A DNA stretch of 64,000 nucleotides. Source: Escherichia coli. GTDB taxonomy: Bacteria > Pseudomonadota > Gammaproteobacteria > Enterobacterales > Enterobacteriaceae. The stretch lies in NCBI RefSeq assembly GCF_050920415.1, contig NZ_CP169309.1. The stretch is one strand, 5' to 3'. Below, in pieces: positions 4,195 through 45,065 of this stretch. Position 1 is the stretch's first letter. Every line of letters begins with the position of its first letter. Under the pieces are notes generated by a model, which was given only the letters and a program-made list of their open reading frames with translations, did no database searches and was not told the origin of the DNA. A program made the position numbers and the translations under genes.

Positions 4195-4617
4195 ATGAGC
4201 TATGACAAAGCGAAATACCATTTTGACTCGGTTATAGAAGAAGGTTTACCGCTCAGCCAGGCATACATCCATACTGGTTTTTATTTAGGTTGGTTGATTG
4301 ATAATAACTTGTTGGACGAGGAGTTTAAGGAAGATCTCGCTGAATCTCTTGCCCTCTTTACGCGCAGAGAAATAACAGCCCCTCAGCTTTTTGAAGAATT
4401 CGATGGTACTTTGACCGATGAAGAACTTTCGACCCAAGGAAACGCCTTTACTAAACATTATTTTGATTTTGATACAGGCGATTATCTCGAAGACTACTGC
4501 ACCCATCTTGTCAAAGATCTTCCCAGCGAATTCCATGTAAAAGACACATGGGAAAACTATAAAATCGCAGCGAGTTTCATATCCAGACGCTATCAGGAAT
4601 GGCTACAGAACCAATAG
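4195..4617 (+). CDS. hypothetical acidic protein, unknown function (strain-variable insertion between cstA and entH)
   Basis: ORF in the 4138-4617 frame; probable start ATG 4195 preceded by taaggag Shine-Dalgarno (4181-4187); 140 aa MSYDKAKYHFDSVIEEG; surrounding DNA visibly AT-rich; no homolog recognised by eye. Confidence 0.5.
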   Translation: MSYDKAKYHFDSVIEEGLPLSQAYIHTGFYLGWLIDNNLLDEEFKEDLAESLALFTRREITAPQLFEEFDGTLTDEELSTQGNAFTKHYFDFDTGDYLEDYCTHLVKDLPSEFHVKDTWENYKIAASFISRRYQEWLQNQ

Positions 4618-6760: not shown

Positions 6761-8371
6761 TCAGGCTGATGCGCGTGACGCCAGCCACTGACGTAATTGT
6801 TTTTTATCGACTTTCCCGACCGCCGTCAGCGGAAGTGAATCTACACACTCCACGCGATCCGGTAATTTAAATTCGGCAATACCCTGTTCACGCAGGAAAC
6901 GACGCACCTGCACCGCACGCAGTGGTTCTTTTACCACCAGATAAGCACAGCTTTTTTCGCCCATCAGCTCATCTTCCATACTCACCAGTGCGGCGTAGAT
7001 CACCGCCGGATGGCGCAGTAACAGGTTTTCGATCTCTTCGGCAGCGATCTTCTCGCCGCCACGGTTGATCTGATCTTTCTCGCGCCCCTGCACGGTGATG
7101 TACCCCTCTGGATCAATAGAGATCAGATCGCCGGAACAGTAAAAACCGTTGGCATCAAAGGCGCTGGCATTGTGCTGTGGACTTTTGTAATAGCCGCGGA
7201 AGGTGTACGGCCCGCGCGTCATCAGGCGTCCAACCTCCCCTTGCGGCAGTGGATTTCCGTCAGCATCGGCAACCCACACTTCATCATCCGGACACATTGG
7301 ATAGCCCTGGGTATGGATAATTTTTTCCGCGCTATCATCAAGACGGGTGTAGTTCACCAGCCCTTCCGCCATGCCGAATACCTGCTGTAACTGGCAGCCA
7401 ATCTCTGCGGGAATACGCGCCGCAAGCGTGGCAGAAAGACGTGCGCCACCGACCTGTAACAGTTTCAGCGAGGCAAGCTGCGCCCGGCTTTCACCTTCGG
7501 TCAGCGCCTGTAACCACAGGCTGACTGCTGGTGGCACCAGCGCGGTGACGTTCACCTGATGTTTTGCAATCAATGGGAAGCAGAGCGTGGCGCTGGGGTC
7601 GGCAGCCAGAGCGACCGTGCCGCCAGCGAGAAAGACGCCCAGCGATCCTGGCGAACTCATGGCGTAGTTGTGGGCCGCAGGAATCGCGCACAGGTAGCGT
7701 GTCTGTTGCGTGAACTGACAAATCTCGACGCTACGACGTACGCTGTAGTAATAGTCATTGTGAGTGCGTGGGATCAGTTTCGGTGTGCCGGTGGTACCGC
7801 CGGAGAGCTGAAAATAGGCCACTTCATCGGCAGGTGACGGTGTGGCAGTAAAATCCTCTGCAGGATGGTTAATCGCATCCTGCAAGTTATGCTCACCGCT
7901 GTCGTTCAGCAGCTGCACCACGCGAATGGAAGAATGCTCTGCAACAAATGTGTTGAGGAAATCATCCCCGCTAAATAGCGCATGTTGGCGATCGGCAATC
8001 AGTAACGCCGGTTCAATCTGGCTGGCATAGGCGTTCAGTTCACTACGCTGATGGCTGAACAGCGCGAGCACCGGCGCAACGCCCAATTTTAGCAGTGCGA
8101 AAAAGGTAATATACAATTCAGCGACGTTACCCAGTTGTACCAGTGCGGTTTCACCGGGTTTAATGCCCTGACGACGCAAGCTACAGGCGAGATTATCCGC
8201 CGCCTGATTCAGTTTCCGGTAACTCAACTGACGCTCGCCGTCGATGACCGCGATGCTGTCGCTTGCGGCATGACGGGTCAGAATGTCGGTCAGCGGCAAA
8301 TCCTGCCAGTAGCCTTTTTCCCGATAGCGACGGGCAAACTCTTCCGGCCAGCGGGTGAATGAAATGCTCAT
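6761..8371 (-). CDS. entE: 2,3-dihydroxybenzoate-AMP ligase EntE (adenylation enzyme)
   Basis: 536-aa [27 protein letters not shown]; adenylate-forming motifs SGGTTGTPK and YRTGD-like [11 protein letters not shown]. Confidence 0.93.
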
Positions 8372-24916: not shown

Positions 24917-25069
24917 CTACTTCTTCGGTTCGTAAGCGAGAACAGCCCTGAACTCAATATTACGTTCCTTTACGGTGAACTCACACAGCGAGTCGCCGAC
25001 CAGAAGCGTAAATCCCAGCACTGTCAAACACAGCACTATGACCGCCACAAGGGCATATTTCGTCAGCAT
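24917..25069 (-). CDS. hokE: Hok-family membrane toxin, copy 1 (upstream frame fused in-frame by a 1-nt deletion)
   Basis: 50-aa [50 protein letters not shown] at the end of the 24917-25213 ORF; start codon at 25067-25069. Confidence 0.8.
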
Positions 25070-25418
25070 GTTTATATTGCCTCCATGCGAAGAAGGGACT
25101 ACCATCCAAATTGTCTGGTTTGGAGTGGCGGCCCCAGGGTTGATAGAAATATCTCCTGGGGCTTCATCTTTCCAGACCTCAGAGTTAACCTGAAACCGGA
25201 AAGCTTCAGGCACCCGCCGTTATCTTACCCTTCCTTAGCAAAATGGCTGTTTATTTATACAGTAAATCCTGTTCCGGACTTTTCATTAGTATTATCGCCC
25301 ATGCCAGTTAAACGACATCGCCCGCAGCCATCACTGACCACGGGCGAAAATGTAAAGCAGGTGCCTTACCACCCTGAACTGACAACCGGATATGCGGGGA
25401 TTACTCCCCGCACAACGG

Positions 25419-25571
25419 CTACTTCTTCGGTTCGTAAGCGAGAACAGCCCTGAACTCAATATTATGTTCCTTTACGGTGAACTCACACAGCGAGTCGCCG
25501 ACCAGAAGCGTAAATCCCAGCACTGTCAAACACAGCACTATGACCGCCACAAGGGCATATTTCGTCAGCAT
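25419..25571 (-). CDS. hokE: Hok-family membrane toxin, copy 2
   Basis: 50-aa [50 protein letters not shown]; an overlapping out-of-frame ORF (25483-25716) is in the position expected for mok. Confidence 0.8.
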
Positions 25572-25921
25572 GTTTATATTGCCTCCATGCGAAGAAGGGA
25601 CTACCATCCGAGTTGTTGAGGTTCGGAGTGGCAGCCCCAGGGTTGATAGAAATATCTCCTGGGGCTTCATCTTTCCAGACCTCAGAGTAAACCTGAAACC
25701 GGAAAGCTTCAGGCACCCGCCGTTATCTTACCCTTCCTTAGCAAAATGGCTGTTTATTTATACAGTGAGTCCTGTTTCGGACTTCTGTTGGCAAAACTGA
25801 TCATTGCTCTTAAAACGACATCGCCCGCAGCCATCACTGACCGCGGGCGAAAGTGTAAAGCAGGTGCCTTACCATCCTGACCTGACAACCGGATATGCGG
25901 GGATTACTCCCCGCACAACGG

Positions 25922-26074
25922 CTACTTCTTCGGTTCGTAAGCGAGAACAGCCTTAAACTCAATATTACGTTCCTTCACCGTAAACTCACACAGCGAGTCT
26001 CCGACCAGAACCGTAAATCCCAGCACCGTCAAACACAGCACTATGACTGCCACAAGGGCATATTTCGTCAGCAT
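25922..26074 (-). CDS. hokE: Hok-family membrane toxin, copy 3
   Basis: 50-aa [50 protein letters not shown]; overlapping out-of-frame mok-like ORF 25986-26219. Confidence 0.8.
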
Positions 26075-38421: not shown

Positions 38422-39105
38422 ATGAAACTGTTGATTGTCGAAGATGAAAAGAAAACCGGCGAATACTTAACCAAAGGGTTAACCGAGGCCGGTTTTGTGG
38501 TTGATTTGGCCGATAACGGGCTGAATGGATACCATCTGGCGATGACAGGTGATTATGACCTGATAATCCTAGATATTATGCTGCCGGACGTGAACGGCTG
38601 GGATATCGTGCGTATGTTGCGTTCCGCCAATAAAGGGATGCCGATTCTGTTGCTTACCGCGCTTGGCACCATTGAACATCGCGTCAAGGGGCTGGAGCTG
38701 GGAGCGGATGACTATCTGGTGAAGCCGTTCGCTTTTGCTGAACTGCTGGCGCGGGTGCGCACTCTACTGCGTCGCGGGGCGGCGGTGATTATCGAAAGTC
38801 AGTTTCAGGTTGCCGATTTAATGGTTGATCTGGTCAGCCGCAAAGTCACCCGCAGCGGCACGCGCATCACTTTGACCAGTAAAGAGTTTACTCTGCTGGA
38901 GTTTTTCCTTCGCCATCAGGGCGAAGTGCTGCCCCGCTCGCTTATCGCCTCGCAGGTGTGGGACATGAATTTCGACAGCGACACTAACGCCATTGATGTG
39001 GCGGTGAAGCGGCTGCGCGGCAAAATCGACAACGACTTTGAGCCGAAGCTGATTCAAACCGTGCGCGGCGTGGGTTACATGCTTGAGGTGCCGGATGGTC
39101 AGTAA
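38422..39105 (+). CDS. cusR: copper-responsive response regulator CusR (OmpR family)
   Basis: 227-aa [43 protein letters not shown]; receiver plus winged-helix domains. Confidence 0.95.
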
Positions 39106-40543
39106 GCCGTTTCAGCGCCCGTTTTCGCTGGCAACCCGCCTGACCTTTTTTATTAGCCTGGCCACCATCGCGGCGTTTTTCGCCTTTGCATGGATCATGA
39201 TCCACTCAGTAAAAGTGCATTTTGCCGAGCAGGATATTAATGATTTAAAAGAGATTAGCGCCACACTTGAACGGGTACTTAATCACCCTGACGAAACGCA
39301 AGCCCGACGCTTAATGACGCTGGAAGATATTGTCAGTGGTTATTCCAATGTGTTGATTTCTCTGGCAGATAGCCACGGTAAAACGGTGTATCACTCCCCC
39401 GGCGCGCCGGATATCCGCGAGTTTGCACGTGATGCCATACCCGATAAAGACGCTCGGGGCGGCGAGGTGTATCTCCTTTCCGGCCCGACAATGATGATGC
39501 CAGGCCACGGTCACGGGCATATGGAACACAGCAACTGGCGGATGATTAACTTGCCGGTTGGCCCGCTGGTGGACGGCAAACCGATTTATACGCTCTACAT
39601 CGCGCTGTCTATTGATTTTCATCTTCATTACATTAATGATTTGATGAATAAACTTATTATGACCGCATCGATCATCAGCATCCTGATCGTCTTTATCGTG
39701 CTGTTGGCGGTACATAAAGGCCACGCGCCAATTCGCAGCGTCAGCCGTCAAATCCAGAACATTACCTCGAAAGATCTCGACGTTCGCCTCGATCCACAGA
39801 CCGTGCCCATTGAACTGGAACAACTGGTGCTGTCGTTCAACCATATGATCGAGCGTATCGAGGATGTCTTTACCCGCCAGTCCAATTTCTGTGCGGATAT
39901 CGCCCACGAAATTCGCACGCCGATTACGAATCTCATAACGCAAACGGAAATCGCCCTCAGCCAGTCGCGCAGCCAGAAGGAGCTGGAAGATGTGCTCTAC
40001 TCTAATCTCGAAGAGCTGACGCGAATGGCGAAAATGGTCAGCGATATGCTGTTTCTCGCTCAGGCCGATAACAACCAGTTAATCCCCGAAAAGAAAATGC
40101 TCAACCTGGCGGATGAAGTTGGTAAAGTGTTCGATTTTTTCGAGGCGTTAGCGGAAGATCGCGGCGTAGCACTACGGTTTGTTGGCGACAAATGTCAGGT
40201 TGCGGGCGATCCGCTGATGCTGCGTCGGGCGCTAAGCAACCTGCTTTCTAACGCCCTGCGTTATACGCCGCCCGGAGAGGCAATTGTAGTGCGCTGTCAA
40301 ACGGTCGATCACCAGGTGCAAGTTACCGTCGAAAACCCCGGTACGCCCATTGCGCCCGAGCACTTACCGCGTTTGTTTGACCGTTTCTACCGCGTTGATC
40401 CTTCCCGCCAGCGAAAAGGTGAAGGTAGCGGTATTGGTCTGGCGATAGTGAAATCAATTGTTGTCGCGCATAAAGGCACGGTTGCGGTAACGTCAGATGC
40501 GCGGGGGACAAGGTTTGTTATCGGGCTACCGGAGAGGGAGTGA
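39095..40543 (+). CDS. cusS: copper-sensing histidine kinase CusS
   Basis: ORF frame 39083-40543; recognised start [31 protein letters not shown] at 39095, overlapping the cusR end; H-box [10 protein letters not shown]. Confidence 0.93.
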
Positions 40544-40758
40544 TTGGTCAGATAATGCAGTGGATGTTAATTGAATTGAGAATTAGCTATTTCGTCACGA
40601 GAAAAAGCGTAAAATCCGTTTCGTGCAGATGGTGAGTTTTATCAGGGTATGGCGGTAGCGCAACTGCCTTCGGATAATATATATAGTGTGAATGTATACC
40701 CCAGATAACTTCACCATCCAAATATATTCTTGAGATTAAAATATCGTATATTAATCGT

Positions 40759-41238
40759 ATGGGTGAAAATCCTGTTAATATTTTAACGAATCATGAGTAC
40801 TATAAAGTGGAAAAAATCATAGAACAGATAAAACCATTTTGGACAAAATATGATTCTTTGTCAGAAAAAGATATGATGTTGTTAGAGTCCAATTTCACGC
40901 ATCGTTTTCCAGAAGATATGAAAGAGTTTTTTCTGTGGTCTAACGGTGGAGCAGGTAAATTTCACAATATTTACATTTCCTTGTGGCCATTAGACGAAAT
41001 CAAGGAATTAAATGATGGTTATTTAATCAATCATTATCTAGGTGAACAGTTCATGGCTTTTGGTTCTGATGGTGGGCCGATATGTTTTTTACTGGATTAT
41101 CGTAATCCAGAACACACCAGAATATCTTCCGTAAATTTTGGTGACCTGGATATAGCTGAAGTAAAACAAATAGCAATTTCATTCGATGTTTTTTTAGAGT
41201 TGGCAGGAAATGGAGAAATTATAAGTAATAATTTATAA
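40759..41238 (+). CDS. SMI1/KNR4 (SUKH-1) family protein, putative toxin-immunity protein
   Basis: 159-aa ORF in AT-rich DNA; motif RFPEDMKEFFLWSNGGAG resembles the Smi1/Knr4 signature; no adjacent toxin gene. Confidence 0.6.
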   Translation: MGENPVNILTNHEYYKVEKIIEQIKPFWTKYDSLSEKDMMLLESNFTHRFPEDMKEFFLWSNGGAGKFHNIYISLWPLDEIKELNDGYLINHYLGEQFMAFGSDGGPICFLLDYRNPEHTRISSVNFGDLDIAEVKQIAISFDVFLELAGNGEIISNNL

Positions 41239-41367
41239 TCAAGTAATTTCCCCTCACGCTGGCGATTGTCGTGGAATGCAGCGAAATTAATTTTATGAAT
41301 AATAAAGTATTAGGGCAGGATTAAGACATAAGATACGGATAAAATTCTCATATACAAAGGATTACGA

Positions 41368-41914
41368 ATGGCAACTGCAAGGATAAATGTTTTTTGCACG
41401 AATGAAGAGCTGTCTGATTGGCTCGCTATTATAGCCTCAAAGTATCAATTACATTCGATTTGGTTTGCGCTACAAGATGAATACTCTCAACAACTAAATA
41501 TTTTAACAGAAAAAAATCCCTGTTGTAGCATATCGAATTTATCTTATGCCCAGCATTAAATCTAACAATAGAAAAATAAAGTTTAGTAGCATTGATCGTT
41601 GTTGTGGTTGGATTGAAATAAAACCGGGGCATTTAGTTGAGCATAACGGGGCAAAGATGTTACAACTTACTGAAATTAACACTACTGATTCTGAGAATAA
41701 ATTAATATGTTTATGCAAAGCCATTAACTGGCTTAAACGACAGATTAAAACCAATGAATTTTCCGGTGTAACGGGAAAGAATAAAATTTATGGTGGAGAA
41801 ACTATTCACCCTCATATTTTCTATACGCATCAAGCCAAATCTCTTTTTTATGATAAAGTAATATGGAAACAAGACTTCCTATTCAATTCTGTATATGAGC
41901 CATTTATTTCATAG
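41368..41914 (+). pseudogene. small unknown protein split by a +1 frameshift at an A7 tract (two ORFs 41368-41559 and 41546-41914)
   Basis: The frame of the second ORF is open from 41507; the two frames would join at the run cagaaaaaaatccc (about 41507-41520); combined product about 185 aa; AT-rich. Confidence 0.45.
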
Positions 41915-42386
41915 TTTTCAGCAAACAATATTAACCACGATGAATATGACTAAAAAAGAAGCATTAGCATTCCTTGCTCTAAATCACCCTATGCCTAATG
42001 ATTATGACATCACACAGGAACTTATCAATAAATATGACGACGTAAGACTTTATTTTTGTGCAAATCCTGCTGAAGAGGCTATCCCATTATTTTTACAATC
42101 CTTTGGGGAAGGTGATGGCTTAGGAGTATATCAGTTGGTTGAAGATTTTTTGTTTAAATGTGATGAAAATATTGTAGTATCCAATATAGCCAGCATACTG
42201 GAAAATCCTCTGACAATAAAAAGCGTCCGATATTGGTGTACATTATTGGCAATGGCTTTCCCGGATAACATCTTAATTAAAGGATTAAATATTTCTCTAC
42301 ATTCTGATGATGAGGATACTCGAGACATGGCTATGTTAAGTTTAAAGATGATTACAGAGGAATATAAAACATTTGAATTCCAATAA
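41895..42386 (+). CDS. hypothetical protein, possible immunity-like protein
   Basis: 163-aa ORF in the same AT-rich island, same strand; alternative starts at 41940 or 41946; no homolog recognised. Confidence 0.45.
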   Translation: MSHLFHSFQQTILTTMNMTKKEALAFLALNHPMPNDYDITQELINKYDDVRLYFCANPAEEAIPLFLQSFGEGDGLGVYQLVEDFLFKCDENIVVSNIASILENPLTIKSVRYWCTLLAMAFPDNILIKGLNISLHSDDEDTRDMAMLSLKMITEEYKTFEFQ

Positions 42387-42413
42387 TTCCCCCTTGCATA
42401 AAAGATCACCATC

Positions 42414-42503
42414 ATGACAAAAACACAAGCAAAGTTGCTTATTTATAAAGCATTTGTTATTTTAACGTTCTTTATTTCCTGGTTGAATATTAAACTTAAT
42501 TAA
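42414..42503 (+). CDS. candidate 29-aa hydrophobic small protein (MTKTQAKLLIYKAFVILTFFISWLNIKLN)
   Basis: Short ORF below the track cut-off, read directly from the sequence; single predicted transmembrane segment; weak ribosome-binding context. Confidence 0.2.
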   Translation: MTKTQAKLLIYKAFVILTFFISWLNIKLN

Positions 42504-42827
42504 TCTAAAGAGAAATGAAGTTAGCCTTCCTGTACCCACAGCAACGCCGTCTTTTTGTTCAGCACGGGGAAAATGTTCTCCCCTGCTCACCTCCTCCAGG
42601 CACTTCCACAACATGATGACCTGATCGGTTGCCGCCTATCCTCCTCACTATGACCTTCACCTCCGCGCTTTTGTCTACATTCTACACAATCGGCAACTTT
42701 TATAACCAGTGTAAAAATAACGTGCCGCAATAATCCTACCTATTAATGATAAAAAGCTGTCACAATTCATAAAAAACTTTAATATACGCCACCCTAAACA
42801 TAACCAGCGTTAATGTAAGGTTTTTGT

Positions 42828-45065
42828 GTGGACTGGCTTCTTGATGTTTTTGCAACCTGGCTCTACGGCTTAAAAGTAATCGCGATAACGTTAGCGGTCA
42901 TCATGTTCATCAGCGGGCTGGACGATTTTTTTATTGATGTCGTCTACTGGGTACGCCGCATTAAACGCAAGTTGAGTGTTTATCGCCGCTACCCGCGAAT
43001 GAGTTACCGCGAACTGTATAAACCAGATGAAAAACCGTTAGCGATTATGGTTCCGGCGTGGAATGAAACGGGCGTCATCGGCAATATGGCCGAGCTGGCG
43101 GCGACCACGCTCGACTATGAAAACTATCATATCTTTGTTGGCACCTACCCCAACGACCCAGATACTCAGCGTGATGTTGACGAAGTGTGCGCTCGCTTCC
43201 CAAACGTGCATAAGGTAGTCTGCGCGCGTCCTGGCCCCACCAGTAAAGCCGACTGCCTGAACAATGTGCTGGACGCCATCACCCAGTTTGAGCGTAGCGC
43301 CAATTTCGCTTTTGCTGGTTTTATTCTGCATGACGCCGAAGACGTAATTTCACCGATGGAATTGCGTCTGTTCAACTATCTGGTCGAGCGTAAAGATCTG
43401 ATTCAGATCCCGGTATACCCATTCGAACGCGAATGGACGCACTTCACCAGCATGACTTACATTGATGAGTTTTCAGAACTGCATGGCAAAGATGTTCCGG
43501 TGCGTGAAGCCCTCGCCGGACAAGTGCCCAGCGCAGGCGTCGGCACCTGTTTCAGCCGCCGCGCCGTGACTGCACTGTTAGCTGACGGTGACGGTATCGC
43601 TTTCGACGTGCAGAGTCTGACTGAAGATTACGACATTGGTTTCCGCCTGAAAGAAAAAGGTATGACGGAAATTTTTGTCCGTTTTCCGGTGGTGGACGAA
43701 GCCAAAGAACGCGAGCAGCGTAAATTTTTACAGCACGCGCGGACATCAAACATGATCTGCGTGCGCGAATATTTCCCCGATACCTTTTCAACGGCGGTTC
43801 GGCAAAAGTCTCGCTGGATTATCGGCATTGTTTTCCAGGGCTTTAAAACCCATAAATGGACCTCCAGCCTGACACTCAACTACTTTCTCTGGCGTGACCG
43901 CAAAGGGGCAATCAGTAACTTTGTCAGCTTCCTCGCGATGCTGGTGATGATCCAGCTTTTGCTGTTGCTGGCGTATGAAAGTTTCTGGCCCGATGCCTGG
44001 CATTTCCTTTCTATTTTTAGCGGCAGCGCATGGTTAATGACCCTGCTGTGGCTAAACTTTGGCCTGATGGTTAACCGTATCGTACAGCGGGTGATTTTCG
44101 TCACTGGCTACTATGGCCTGACGCAGGGGCTGTTATCTGTCCTGCGTCTTTTCTGGGGCAACCTGATTAACTTCATGGCCAACTGGCGCGCGTTAAAACA
44201 GGTACTTCAACACGGCGATCCACGTCGTGTCGCGTGGGATAAAACAACGCATGACTTCCCCAGCGTGACTGGCGATACCCGCTCGTTGCGTCCGTTAGGT
44301 CAAATCCTGCTGGAAAATCAGGTCATCACTGAAGAACAACTCGATACAGCACTGCGTAATCGCGTCGAAGGTCTACGCCTGGGCGGTTCAATGCTGATGC
44401 AGGGGCTGATTAGCGCCGAGCAGCTGGCACAGGCGCTAGCAGAGCAAAACGGCGTGGCGTGGGAGTCCATCGATGCCTGGCAGATCCCTTCTTCGCTGAT
44501 TGCCGCGATGCCGGCCTCCGTGGCGCTGCATTATGCGGTGCTACCGCTGCGTCTGGAAAATGATGAGTTAATTGTCGGCAGTGAAGATGGTATTGACCCG
44601 GTTTCGCTGGCAGCCCTGACGCGTAAAGTCGGACGCAAAGTGCGTTACGTCATTGTTCTGCGTGGACAAATTGTCACGGGGTTACGTCACTGGTATGCAC
44701 GCCGACGCGGTCACGATCCGCGGGCAATGTTGTACAATGCGGTTCAGCATCAGTGGCTCACGGAACAGCAGGCCGGTGAAATCTGGCGGCAATATGTGCC
44801 GCATCAGTTCCTGTTCGCCGAAATACTGACCACGCTCGGTCATATTAATCGTTCAGCAATTAACGTGTTGTTATTGCGCCATGAACGCAGTTCTCTGCCG
44901 CTCGGCAAGTTTTTGGTCACCGAAGGCGTTATCAGCCAGGAAACGTTGGATCGCGTCCTGACAATTCAACGCGAATTACAAGTTTCGATGCAATCACTAT
45001 TACTCAAAGCAGGTTTAAACACAGAACAGGTTGCGCAACTGGAGTCCGAAAATGAAGGAGAATAA
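42828..45065 (+). CDS. nfrB: bacteriophage N4 adsorption protein B (inner-membrane glycosyltransferase NfrB)
   Basis: 745-aa ORF from GTG 42828, MDWLLDVFATWLYGLKVIAITLAVIMFISGLDDFFIDVVYW; GT2-like core. Confidence 0.93.
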   Translation: MDWLLDVFATWLYGLKVIAITLAVIMFISGLDDFFIDVVYWVRRIKRKLSVYRRYPRMSYRELYKPDEKPLAIMVPAWNETGVIGNMAELAATTLDYENYHIFVGTYPNDPDTQRDVDEVCARFPNVHKVVCARPGPTSKADCLNNVLDAITQFERSANFAFAGFILHDAEDVISPMELRLFNYLVERKDLIQIPVYPFEREWTHFTSMTYIDEFSELHGKDVPVREALAGQVPSAGVGTCFSRRAVTALLADGDGIAFDVQSLTEDYDIGFRLKEKGMTEIFVRFPVVDEAKEREQRKFLQHARTSNMICVREYFPDTFSTAVRQKSRWIIGIVFQGFKTHKWTSSLTLNYFLWRDRKGAISNFVSFLAMLVMIQLLLLLAYESFWPDAWHFLSIFSGSAWLMTLLWLNFGLMVNRIVQRVIFVTGYYGLTQGLLSVLRLFWGNLINFMANWRALKQVLQHGDPRRVAWDKTTHDFPSVTGDTRSLRPLGQILLENQVITEEQLDTALRNRVEGLRLGGSMLMQGLISAEQLAQALAEQNGVAWESIDAWQIPSSLIAAMPASVALHYAVLPLRLENDELIVGSEDGIDPVSLAALTRKVGRKVRYVIVLRGQIVTGLRHWYARRRGHDPRAMLYNAVQHQWLTEQQAGEIWRQYVPHQFLFAEILTTLGHINRSAINVLLLRHERSSLPLGKFLVTEGVISQETLDRVLTIQRELQVSMQSLLLKAGLNTEQVAQLESENEGE

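Follow-up and report, generated by a model that had tools for sequence, protein, structure and literature searches.

In the 64-kb stretch of Escherichia coli DNA analyzed here (the window, taken at its full length), a low-GC segment with three genes, which we term g1, g2 and g3, separates cusS from nfrB. We propose that this segment is probably a small heterogeneous polyimmunity (orphan immunity) array, surviving as the remnant of an Rhs locus at the cusS-nfrB junction. Three lines of evidence, when taken together, point to an immunity-only remnant of this junction, which is known as Rhs position 4: each of the g1, g2 and g3 families is found elsewhere in the immunity position next to toxins; the junction houses a live Rhs locus in about half of E. 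coli; and intermediate states are seen in related Escherichia. A preliminary description of this DNA had already suggested an array of orphan immunity-like genes, and that suggestion is supported by the SUKH match of g1, the toxin-adjacent homologues of all three families and the absence of a toxin from the window.

The mechanism that we envisage is as follows. The relatives of g1, g2 and g3 would be expected to bind and block the C-terminal domain of the upstream, type VI-secreted Rhs toxin, with g1 belonging to those SUKH-1 proteins that pair with Tox-SHH nuclease tips of the HNH/EndoVII fold. In the lineage of the window, the toxin genes, vgrG and the insertion sequence (IS) elements would have gone, leaving g1 and g3 intact, g2 frameshifted and two further downstream genes deleted. 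We infer that g1 and g3, if expressed, would bind and neutralize the Rhs toxins that they match when neighbors inject these through type VI secretion systems (T6SS), and would in this way protect the cell that carries them.

The segment between cusS and nfrB

The flanking genes are cusS (39095..40543, + strand) and nfrB (42828..45065, + strand). The preliminary description gave them as near-adjacent in E. coli K-12, with about 2.3 kb of AT-rich DNA between them here; both statements are borne out, as their spacing is ~150 bp in K-12-like genomes (locus L002) and ~2.3 kb in the window, where windowed GC is 33-35% over 40600-42600 against 51-55% in the flanks. The GC of 40523-42686 is 34.8%, compared with 51.3% for the whole window, and GC at third codon positions is 27-30% in the island genes as against 58-59% in cusS and nfrB. 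The low-GC inserted DNA amounts to ~2.1 kb and holds three genes of unrelated families, all on the + strand and separated by gaps of at most 129 nt, of which the middle one is broken. Its features, including open reading frames (ORFs), are:

40523..42686, no strand: whole inserted segment relative to the K-12-like empty junction (blastn against the empty site L002), taking in the last ~21 nt of cusS
40546..42581, no strand: part specific to this island type (blastn against vgrG-rhs genomes, O157-type loci L026/L028)
40523..40543, + strand: variant cusS 3' end, with the tail ...GLPERE of a 482-aa CusS, as in island-bearing genomes
40807..41238, + strand: g1, predicted SUKH-1 (SMI1/KNR4) immunity-type protein of 143 aa, GTG start at 40807 (Pfam and PDB matches)
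41368..41914, + strand: g2, predicted frameshifted pseudogene of a 181-aa protein, seen as ORFs 41368..41559 (63 aa) and 41546..41914 (122 aa)
41510..41516, + strand: poly-A run (A7) behind the +1 frameshift of g2; A6 in intact alleles
41940..42386, + strand: g3, predicted HEAT-like all-helical protein of 148 aa, start MNMTKKEAL (AlphaFold2 (AF2) model and family profile)
42414..42503, + strand: stub ORF of 29 codons (blastn against locus L003, ORFs of L003 and tblastn)
42453..42827, no strand: nfrB upstream region, the common portions of which differ by junction type

The preliminary description spoke of three same-strand genes of 160-185 aa. The shared strand stands; the sizes do not, as g2 is split and conserved starts give ~143 aa for g1 and 146-148 aa for g3. 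In g1, an alternative upstream ATG at 40759 would yield 159 aa, and the conserved GTG at 40807 yields 143 aa. The options for g3 are the conserved start at 41940, that chosen by the Prokaryotic Genome Annotation Pipeline (PGAP) at 41946, and that of the longest ORF at 41895 (163 aa).

Downstream of g3, the stub at 42414..42503 joins 13 codons from the start of a 142-aa gene to ~16 from the end of a 178-aa membrane ORF. Both parent ORFs are present in the island of strain 118UI (L003), the deletion junction lies at 42452/42453, and blastn reveals that 940 bp of the 118UI island tail (L003 7109-8048) are missing from the window; the stub is what this deletion left behind. The 178-aa ORF of 118UI (within L003 7070-8099) is multi-pass-membrane-like and unannotated, with PGAP calling a 56-aa ORF on the opposite strand instead. 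The DNA upstream of nfrB is common with the 118UI-type and E. albertii islands from 42453, with the vgrG-rhs genomes from 42582 and with the empty-site genomes from 42687; the shared part just 5' of nfrB could hold nfrB regulatory signals. A 50-aa ORF on the - strand in this region (42462-42614) has a counterpart in 118UI (L003 8058-8186) and is probably spurious.

In agreement with the earlier statement that no toxin gene is adjacent, tblastn found no match to Rhs, VgrG, DcrB, the orphan toxin, ISAs1 or the two partner toxin tips (see below) in the island or the 64-kb window. Likewise, the segment yielded no integrase, IS or tRNA, and the island borders no meaningful direct or inverted repeats. 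An Rfam scan of the segment returned a single sub-threshold snoRNA match inside AT-rich coding DNA, which we take as chance.

Homologues of the three genes beside toxins

The motif FPEDMKEFFLWSNGG, in which the preliminary description had recognized a SUKH-1 signature, is present in the first ORF, g1, and hidden Markov model searches uphold that recognition with significant matches: g1 aligns with Pfam PF09346 (SMI1_KNR4/SUKH-1; E 5.4e-12) over model positions 3-124 of 125, with PF14568 (SUKH_6; E 6.3e-6) and, over residues 22-147, with the solved SUKH protein PDB 3d5p_A (phmmer E 1.4e-19). PGAP labels it 'SMI1/KNR4 family protein' (WP_237710163.1) and, going by these matches, g1 is a member of the SUKH-1 family; NCBIfam, by contrast, yielded no match to it. 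Its homologues occur in E. albertii, Salmonella, Pseudocitrobacter, Pigmentiphaga, Pseudomonas and Bordetella. In Pseudomonas, a 49%-identical homologue (P0051) begins 3 nt downstream of the gene for a 1560-aa Rhs protein with a C-terminal Tox-SHH (PF15652), and this Rhs gene in turn follows vgrG; the SHH tip and the SUKH gene are kept together in two further Pseudomonas loci, three in total. The pairing of Imm-SUKH with Tox-SHH is tabulated by Zhang et al. (2012, PMC3482391).

Another locus with a g1-like gene was encountered in Pseudocitrobacter sp. 73 (L033, 4539-9868), where ~10 small same-strand genes and no toxin lie between moaE/Bax1-I and clsB-like genes. Besides the g1-like SUKH gene, this array includes a 151-aa gene, a protein that faintly matches DUF4303 and two additional paralogues of Bax1-I; it may represent a further polyimmunity locus of enterobacteria.

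For g2 and g3 the preliminary description could recognize no function, and neither has a match in Pfam, NCBIfam or PADLOC, or in PHROGs at E <0.1; both families are nonetheless found in the immunity position after Rhs toxins elsewhere. An exhaustive search recovered 108 relatives of g2, of ~180 aa and with ~30% identity, and 57 relatives were likewise without a family match. One g2 homologue (P0081) starts 8 nt after a 1856-aa Rhs protein (L029), and another (P0091) 4 nt after a 330-aa YD-shell Rhs fragment (L031). The C-terminal ~100 aa of these two Rhs proteins are 49% identical to each other and have no family match in Pfam, NCBIfam, PHROG or PDB-sequence searches. The contexts of two more distant homologues (L022 and L024) are uninformative, with one of them lying among PhdYeFM/PIN toxin-antitoxin genes. 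We propose that g2 is an alpha/beta protein putatively paired with this unnamed ~100-aa toxin domain. On visual impression only, the 'RRPD...E.VG.T' motif of that domain resembles the PD-(D/E)xK nuclease motif.

In the window strain, g2 is predicted to be a non-functional pseudogene. The run at 41510-41516 is A7 in the window, A6 in E. albertii and in strain R32_14_1F, which has an intact 181-aa allele (L005:3309-3854), and A8 in strain 2017-02-2CC. This variation among otherwise near-identical islands could reflect a slippage hot spot, homopolymer sequencing error or on/off switching.

The AF2 model of g3 (predicted local distance difference test score 87.6) has eight helices arranged as a HEAT-like solenoid. 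The family profile matches alphaRep/HEAT chains (E 1e-6 to 4e-5), PF13646 is on record for distant homologues, and Foldseek against the PDB yields generic HEAT/ARM repeats at weak significance (E >=0.03). Homologues with 44-68% identity are found in Citrobacter, Hafnia, Cronobacter, Klebsiella aerogenes, Gilliamella, Snodgrassella and beyond. That of Snodgrassella (P0031, 52% identical) overlaps the stop codon of a 416-aa Rhs C-terminal (Rhs-CT) ORF within a series of Rhs-CT/immunity pairs; that of Gilliamella comes after TriTu and a TreTu fragment, in a long array where Imm-NTF2 is present as well; and the context of that of K. aerogenes (L014) is uninformative.

A scan of one genome per species furnished 37 g3 loci, and in 11 of them, from at least four phyla, the same conserved ~115-aa C-terminal domain ends -4 to +79 nt upstream of the g3 homologue. 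This domain is 56-76% identical across Proteobacteria, Bacteroidota, Planctomycetota and Firmicutes (alignment A6), bears the motif '...GEDLYVGTY..VR..N.KSGLN.THTPHHA[IV]QNA...' and has no match in Pfam, NCBIfam, PHROG or PDB-sequence searches. Full-length Rhs proteins carrying it (1450-1530 aa) are encoded by Phytobacter, Mangrovibacter and Pluralibacter; other carriers or fragments come from Yersinia, Lonsdalea, Pedobacter, Apibacter, Gilliamella, Porphyromonas, Pirellula and Eubacterium. In 22 E. coli genomes the same tip occurs as an orphan Rhs fragment on a different island, followed by a 67%-identical paralogue of g3. Hence, g3 is proposed to be a small HEAT-like helical repeat protein, putatively paired with an unnamed ~115-aa toxin domain. 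We also considered this toxin as a divergent Tox-SHH, given the shared 'HHxIQxA'; the idea is unsupported, with a BLASTP E of 0.009 in a different register and an hhalign probability of 3.5%.

The different island is exemplified by E. coli CREC-544 (L073, 6859-9794): it is found in the 22 complete genomes, lies beside an integrase and IS3/IS100 and consists of orphan Rhs tips and immunity genes. Its ORF for the THTPHH toxin domain (6981-7346) is intact and cut off from the Rhs core by a frameshift.

These neighborhoods bear on whether the genes might have a different function altogether, namely in anti-phage defense, as a toxin-antitoxin module or as regulators tied to the Cus or Nfr genes. 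Such a role could be entertained from the location beside nfrBA, the phage N4 adsorption genes, from the want of a named family for g2 and g3, and from the toxin-antitoxin surroundings of the one distant g2 homologue. We nevertheless hold it to be very improbable: none of the three proteins has a PADLOC match at E <=1; the sole PHROG match among them with E <0.1 is that of g1 to a family of unknown function (E 2e-4); the window offers no toxin-like partner; the neighbors of the families across phyla are consistently C-termini of Rhs and other polymorphic toxins together with the known immunity families TriTu, Imm-NTF2, CdiI_N, Imm26 and SUKH-3; and the Cus and Nfr loci are fully functional in the 43% of genomes that lack the array.

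States, age and fate of the junction

We probed the cusS-nfrB junction in 5426 complete E. coli genomes, which gave the following picture:

K-12-like empty junction: 2326 genomes (43%)
cusS followed directly by vgrG (vgrG-rhs): 2516 genomes (46%)
g2 and g3, at ~91% nucleotide identity, in the tail of a ~10-kb toxin-fragment/immunity island: 156 genomes (3%)
the window's arrangement with the whole cluster: 4 genomes (<0.1%)

With the whole cluster so rare and g2 and g3 present in 160 genomes, these are not universally conserved housekeeping genes, against which the preliminary description had wished to guard. In the armed state, as in O157:H7 and strain 0-4, the order is cusS, VgrG, a DcrB-related protein, a 1500-1600-aa Rhs, an immunity gene, an orphan toxin, ISAs1 and nfrB. 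The island of 118UI begins with an HNH/EndoVII toxin fragment, two WD40/BNR-like genes, a PAAR-like fragment, ISEc1, a SUKH-3 gene and ISEc1, and ends with g2 (stop at W81), g3, the 142-aa gene and the 178-aa membrane ORF before nfrB. E. albertii has six genes at the same junction: g1, a 151-aa gene, g2, g3, a CdiI_N protein and a 130-aa gene. Thus, gene content differs between strains, and the Escherichia junction exhibits at least five states: armed; toxin fragments with immunity genes; six immunity genes only; three immunity genes only; and empty. In Jackson et al. (2009, PMC2935791), nfrB-cusS is the conserved Rhs 'position 4' of E. coli, which carries its only clade IV rhs, with displaced C-terminal tips downstream. 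A literature search on immunity genes at cusS-nfrB found no paper.

Synonymous divergence (dS) of the window allele from E. albertii, and the ratio of nonsynonymous to synonymous divergence (dN/dS; the ranges take in other E. coli alleles against E. albertii), were estimated for the three genes and their flanks:

g1: dS 0.41, dN/dS 0.17-0.20
g2 (window allele, frameshift-corrected): dS 0.44-0.49, dN/dS 0.14-0.16
g3: dS 0.46, dN/dS 0.08-0.14
cusR (flank): dS 0.39, dN/dS 0.01
cusS (flank): dS 0.43, dN/dS 0.06
nfrB (flank): dS 0.66, dN/dS 0.03

For the intact g2 of R32_14_1F, dS from E. albertii is 0.50-0.53. By these estimates, the array is as diverged as its neighbors and has evolved under purifying selection, a pattern that fits an array already present when the two species parted and since lost from most E. 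coli. Further, CusS is 482 aa long (...LPERE or ...LPERG) in all island-bearing types and 480 aa (...ITLPA) in empty-site genomes. Because the tail in empty-site genomes differs from that in every island-bearing type, the empty site would seem to be a deletion derivative that clipped cusS.

The cusS gene is itself unusually diverged within E. coli: dS between the window and the K-12-like, O157 and 118UI alleles is 0.19-0.25, and 0.036 against R32_14_1F, as compared to 0.087 for nfrB against 118UI. This suggests old cusS haplotypes linked to the state of the Rhs locus.

In calling the segment an island, the preliminary description was right in that the DNA is AT-rich and extra with respect to the K-12-like junction, and wrong if recent import is meant, since divergence from E. 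albertii equals that of the flanks. A recently acquired mobile genomic island, brought as foreign DNA into an originally empty cusS-nfrB junction, is accordingly a decidedly improbable alternative, although a GC of 35% against 51%, the patchy distribution in E. coli and the ISAs1/ISEc1 copies at the same site in relatives would all suit it. The segment itself has no integrase, IS, tRNA or flanking repeat; E. albertii carries these genes at this junction in unchanged order, with dS of 0.40-0.53 versus 0.39-0.66 for cusR, cusS and nfrB; the difference in the CusS tail fits deletion better than insertion; and Rhs tips, like the immunity genes that go with them, are typically GC-poor (Jackson et al., PMC2935791).

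Our proposal of an orphan immunity array left from an Rhs locus has also to contend with several facts that weigh against it. The toxin-adjacent homologues are only 31-67% identical to the window proteins and, immunity being usually specific, they need not imply cross-protection. Many homologues of all three genes stand alone or in toxin-less arrays, and neither g2 and g3 nor their partner toxin domains match a named family. In the window, g2 is broken and the two downstream genes are deleted; across E. coli, g2 has been inactivated in at least three independent ways (A7, A8 and the change of W81 to a stop). A promoter and terminator scan was not enriched over shuffles, with 5 consensus promoter-like sites against 10.7 expected. 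Finally, the array is gone from most E. coli; hence, selection for it is not strong or general.

The main rival explanation takes such facts further, holding that the genes are inert leftovers of a degraded Rhs locus, silent or useless now, offering no present protection and heading for loss. On its side are the frameshift of g2 in the window and the other ways in which other alleles are disabled, the deletion of 940 bp with two genes, the retention of this form in only 4 of the 5426 genomes next to a clean empty site in 43%, and the lack of enrichment in promoter-like sites; moreover, H-NS is a common silencer of E. coli DNA with a very high AT content. However, neutral decay over the divergence in question would be expected to leave stops or frameshifts in all three genes, whereas g1 and g3 have stayed intact and show dN/dS of 0.08-0.20 at a dS of 0.4-0.5 from E. 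albertii. The frameshift-corrected g2 still has a low dN/dS too, which implies that its lesion is recent. We regard the inert relic as unlikely, if less so than the other alternatives.

Two further features of the window lie apart from the array. Between entD and ybdK (24917-26074, - strand), the type I toxin gene hokE occurs in three tandem copies, interspersed with small 'hypothetical' pseudogenes that are frameshifted; strain 118UI has two hokE copies. Between cstA and entH (4195-4617, + strand) is a gene for a 140-aa 'hypothetical protein' (WP_000119449.1).

Significance and comparison with known systems

The kinds of elements encountered here are already known: SUKH immunity, polyimmunity loci, orphan immunity arrays and C-terminal displacement at Rhs loci, and the established picture of polymorphic toxin systems is unchanged. 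What appears to be new is the immunity-only state of position 4, its apparent age and the proposed toxin partners of two 'hypothetical protein' families. The junction thereby offers a clean, dated example of an Rhs locus after the loss of its weapon, in which the shields stay, and its series of states would be useful for studying the gain, keeping and loss of interbacterial immunity. The proposed toxin partners are testable, and two toxin domains without family assignment in the libraries searched are pointed to. We put forward only tentatively, as something that could well prove wrong, the stronger combination in which g2 and g3 represent two unnamed immunity families tied to their own unnamed toxin domains and the array has been kept by purifying selection since before the split from E. 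albertii; if true, the array would be a case from nature of orphan immunity being selected for on its own over the long term. The unnamed status of both families is provisional, applying to the libraries searched.

Like the SUKH-1/SMI1_KNR4 proteins (PF09346; 3D5P), g1 covers the whole domain and has a homologue paired with a Tox-SHH Rhs; unlike the toxin-paired members, it has no adjacent toxin. SUKH arrays have been described (Zhang et al. 2011, PMC3113570), and heterogeneous polyimmunity loci have been proposed to act as a pre-emptive shield against non-kin toxins (Zhang et al. 2012, PMC3482391). With the latter, the segment shares tandem, close-set, same-strand and unrelated immunity genes that include SUKH, the absence of a full toxin and strain-variable content. 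It differs in several ways: 'extended' polyimmunity loci have at least four genes, whereas the window has three, one of them a pseudogene, plus the 29-codon stub; no recombinase is adjacent to the window array; and the g2 and g3 families and their partner toxins are not among the named Imm/Tox families in the libraries searched. HEAT-repeat immunity is listed there with Tox-REase-7, and the partner domain of g3 is different, with no Pfam match.

The keeping of immunity genes without toxins is also seen in the AID clusters (bioRxiv 10.1101/471110), in Vibrio cholerae arrays (PMC5361080) and in a 14-gene islet of Salmonella Typhi (PMC7400221). Orphan immunity arrays are thought to protect against the T6SS toxins of other strains, as has been shown for AID of gut Bacteroidales (bioRxiv 10.1101/471110). 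However, the AID clusters reside on mobile elements and move between species, in contrast to the window array, which is chromosomal, fixed in position, old and without mobility genes; and the V. cholerae arrays sit behind a live effector, which the window array does not.

A further parallel is Rhs position 4 itself. The window lacks the rhs core, tip fragment, vgrG and H-repeat/ISAs1 of the live locus, and is thus a vestige with immunity genes only, a state not described in the portions of PMC2935791 on which we draw. The published locus shares with the window the junction itself, and has low-GC tip and immunity DNA downstream of the rhs position; the successive-displacement model presented for it explains trailing orphan modules.

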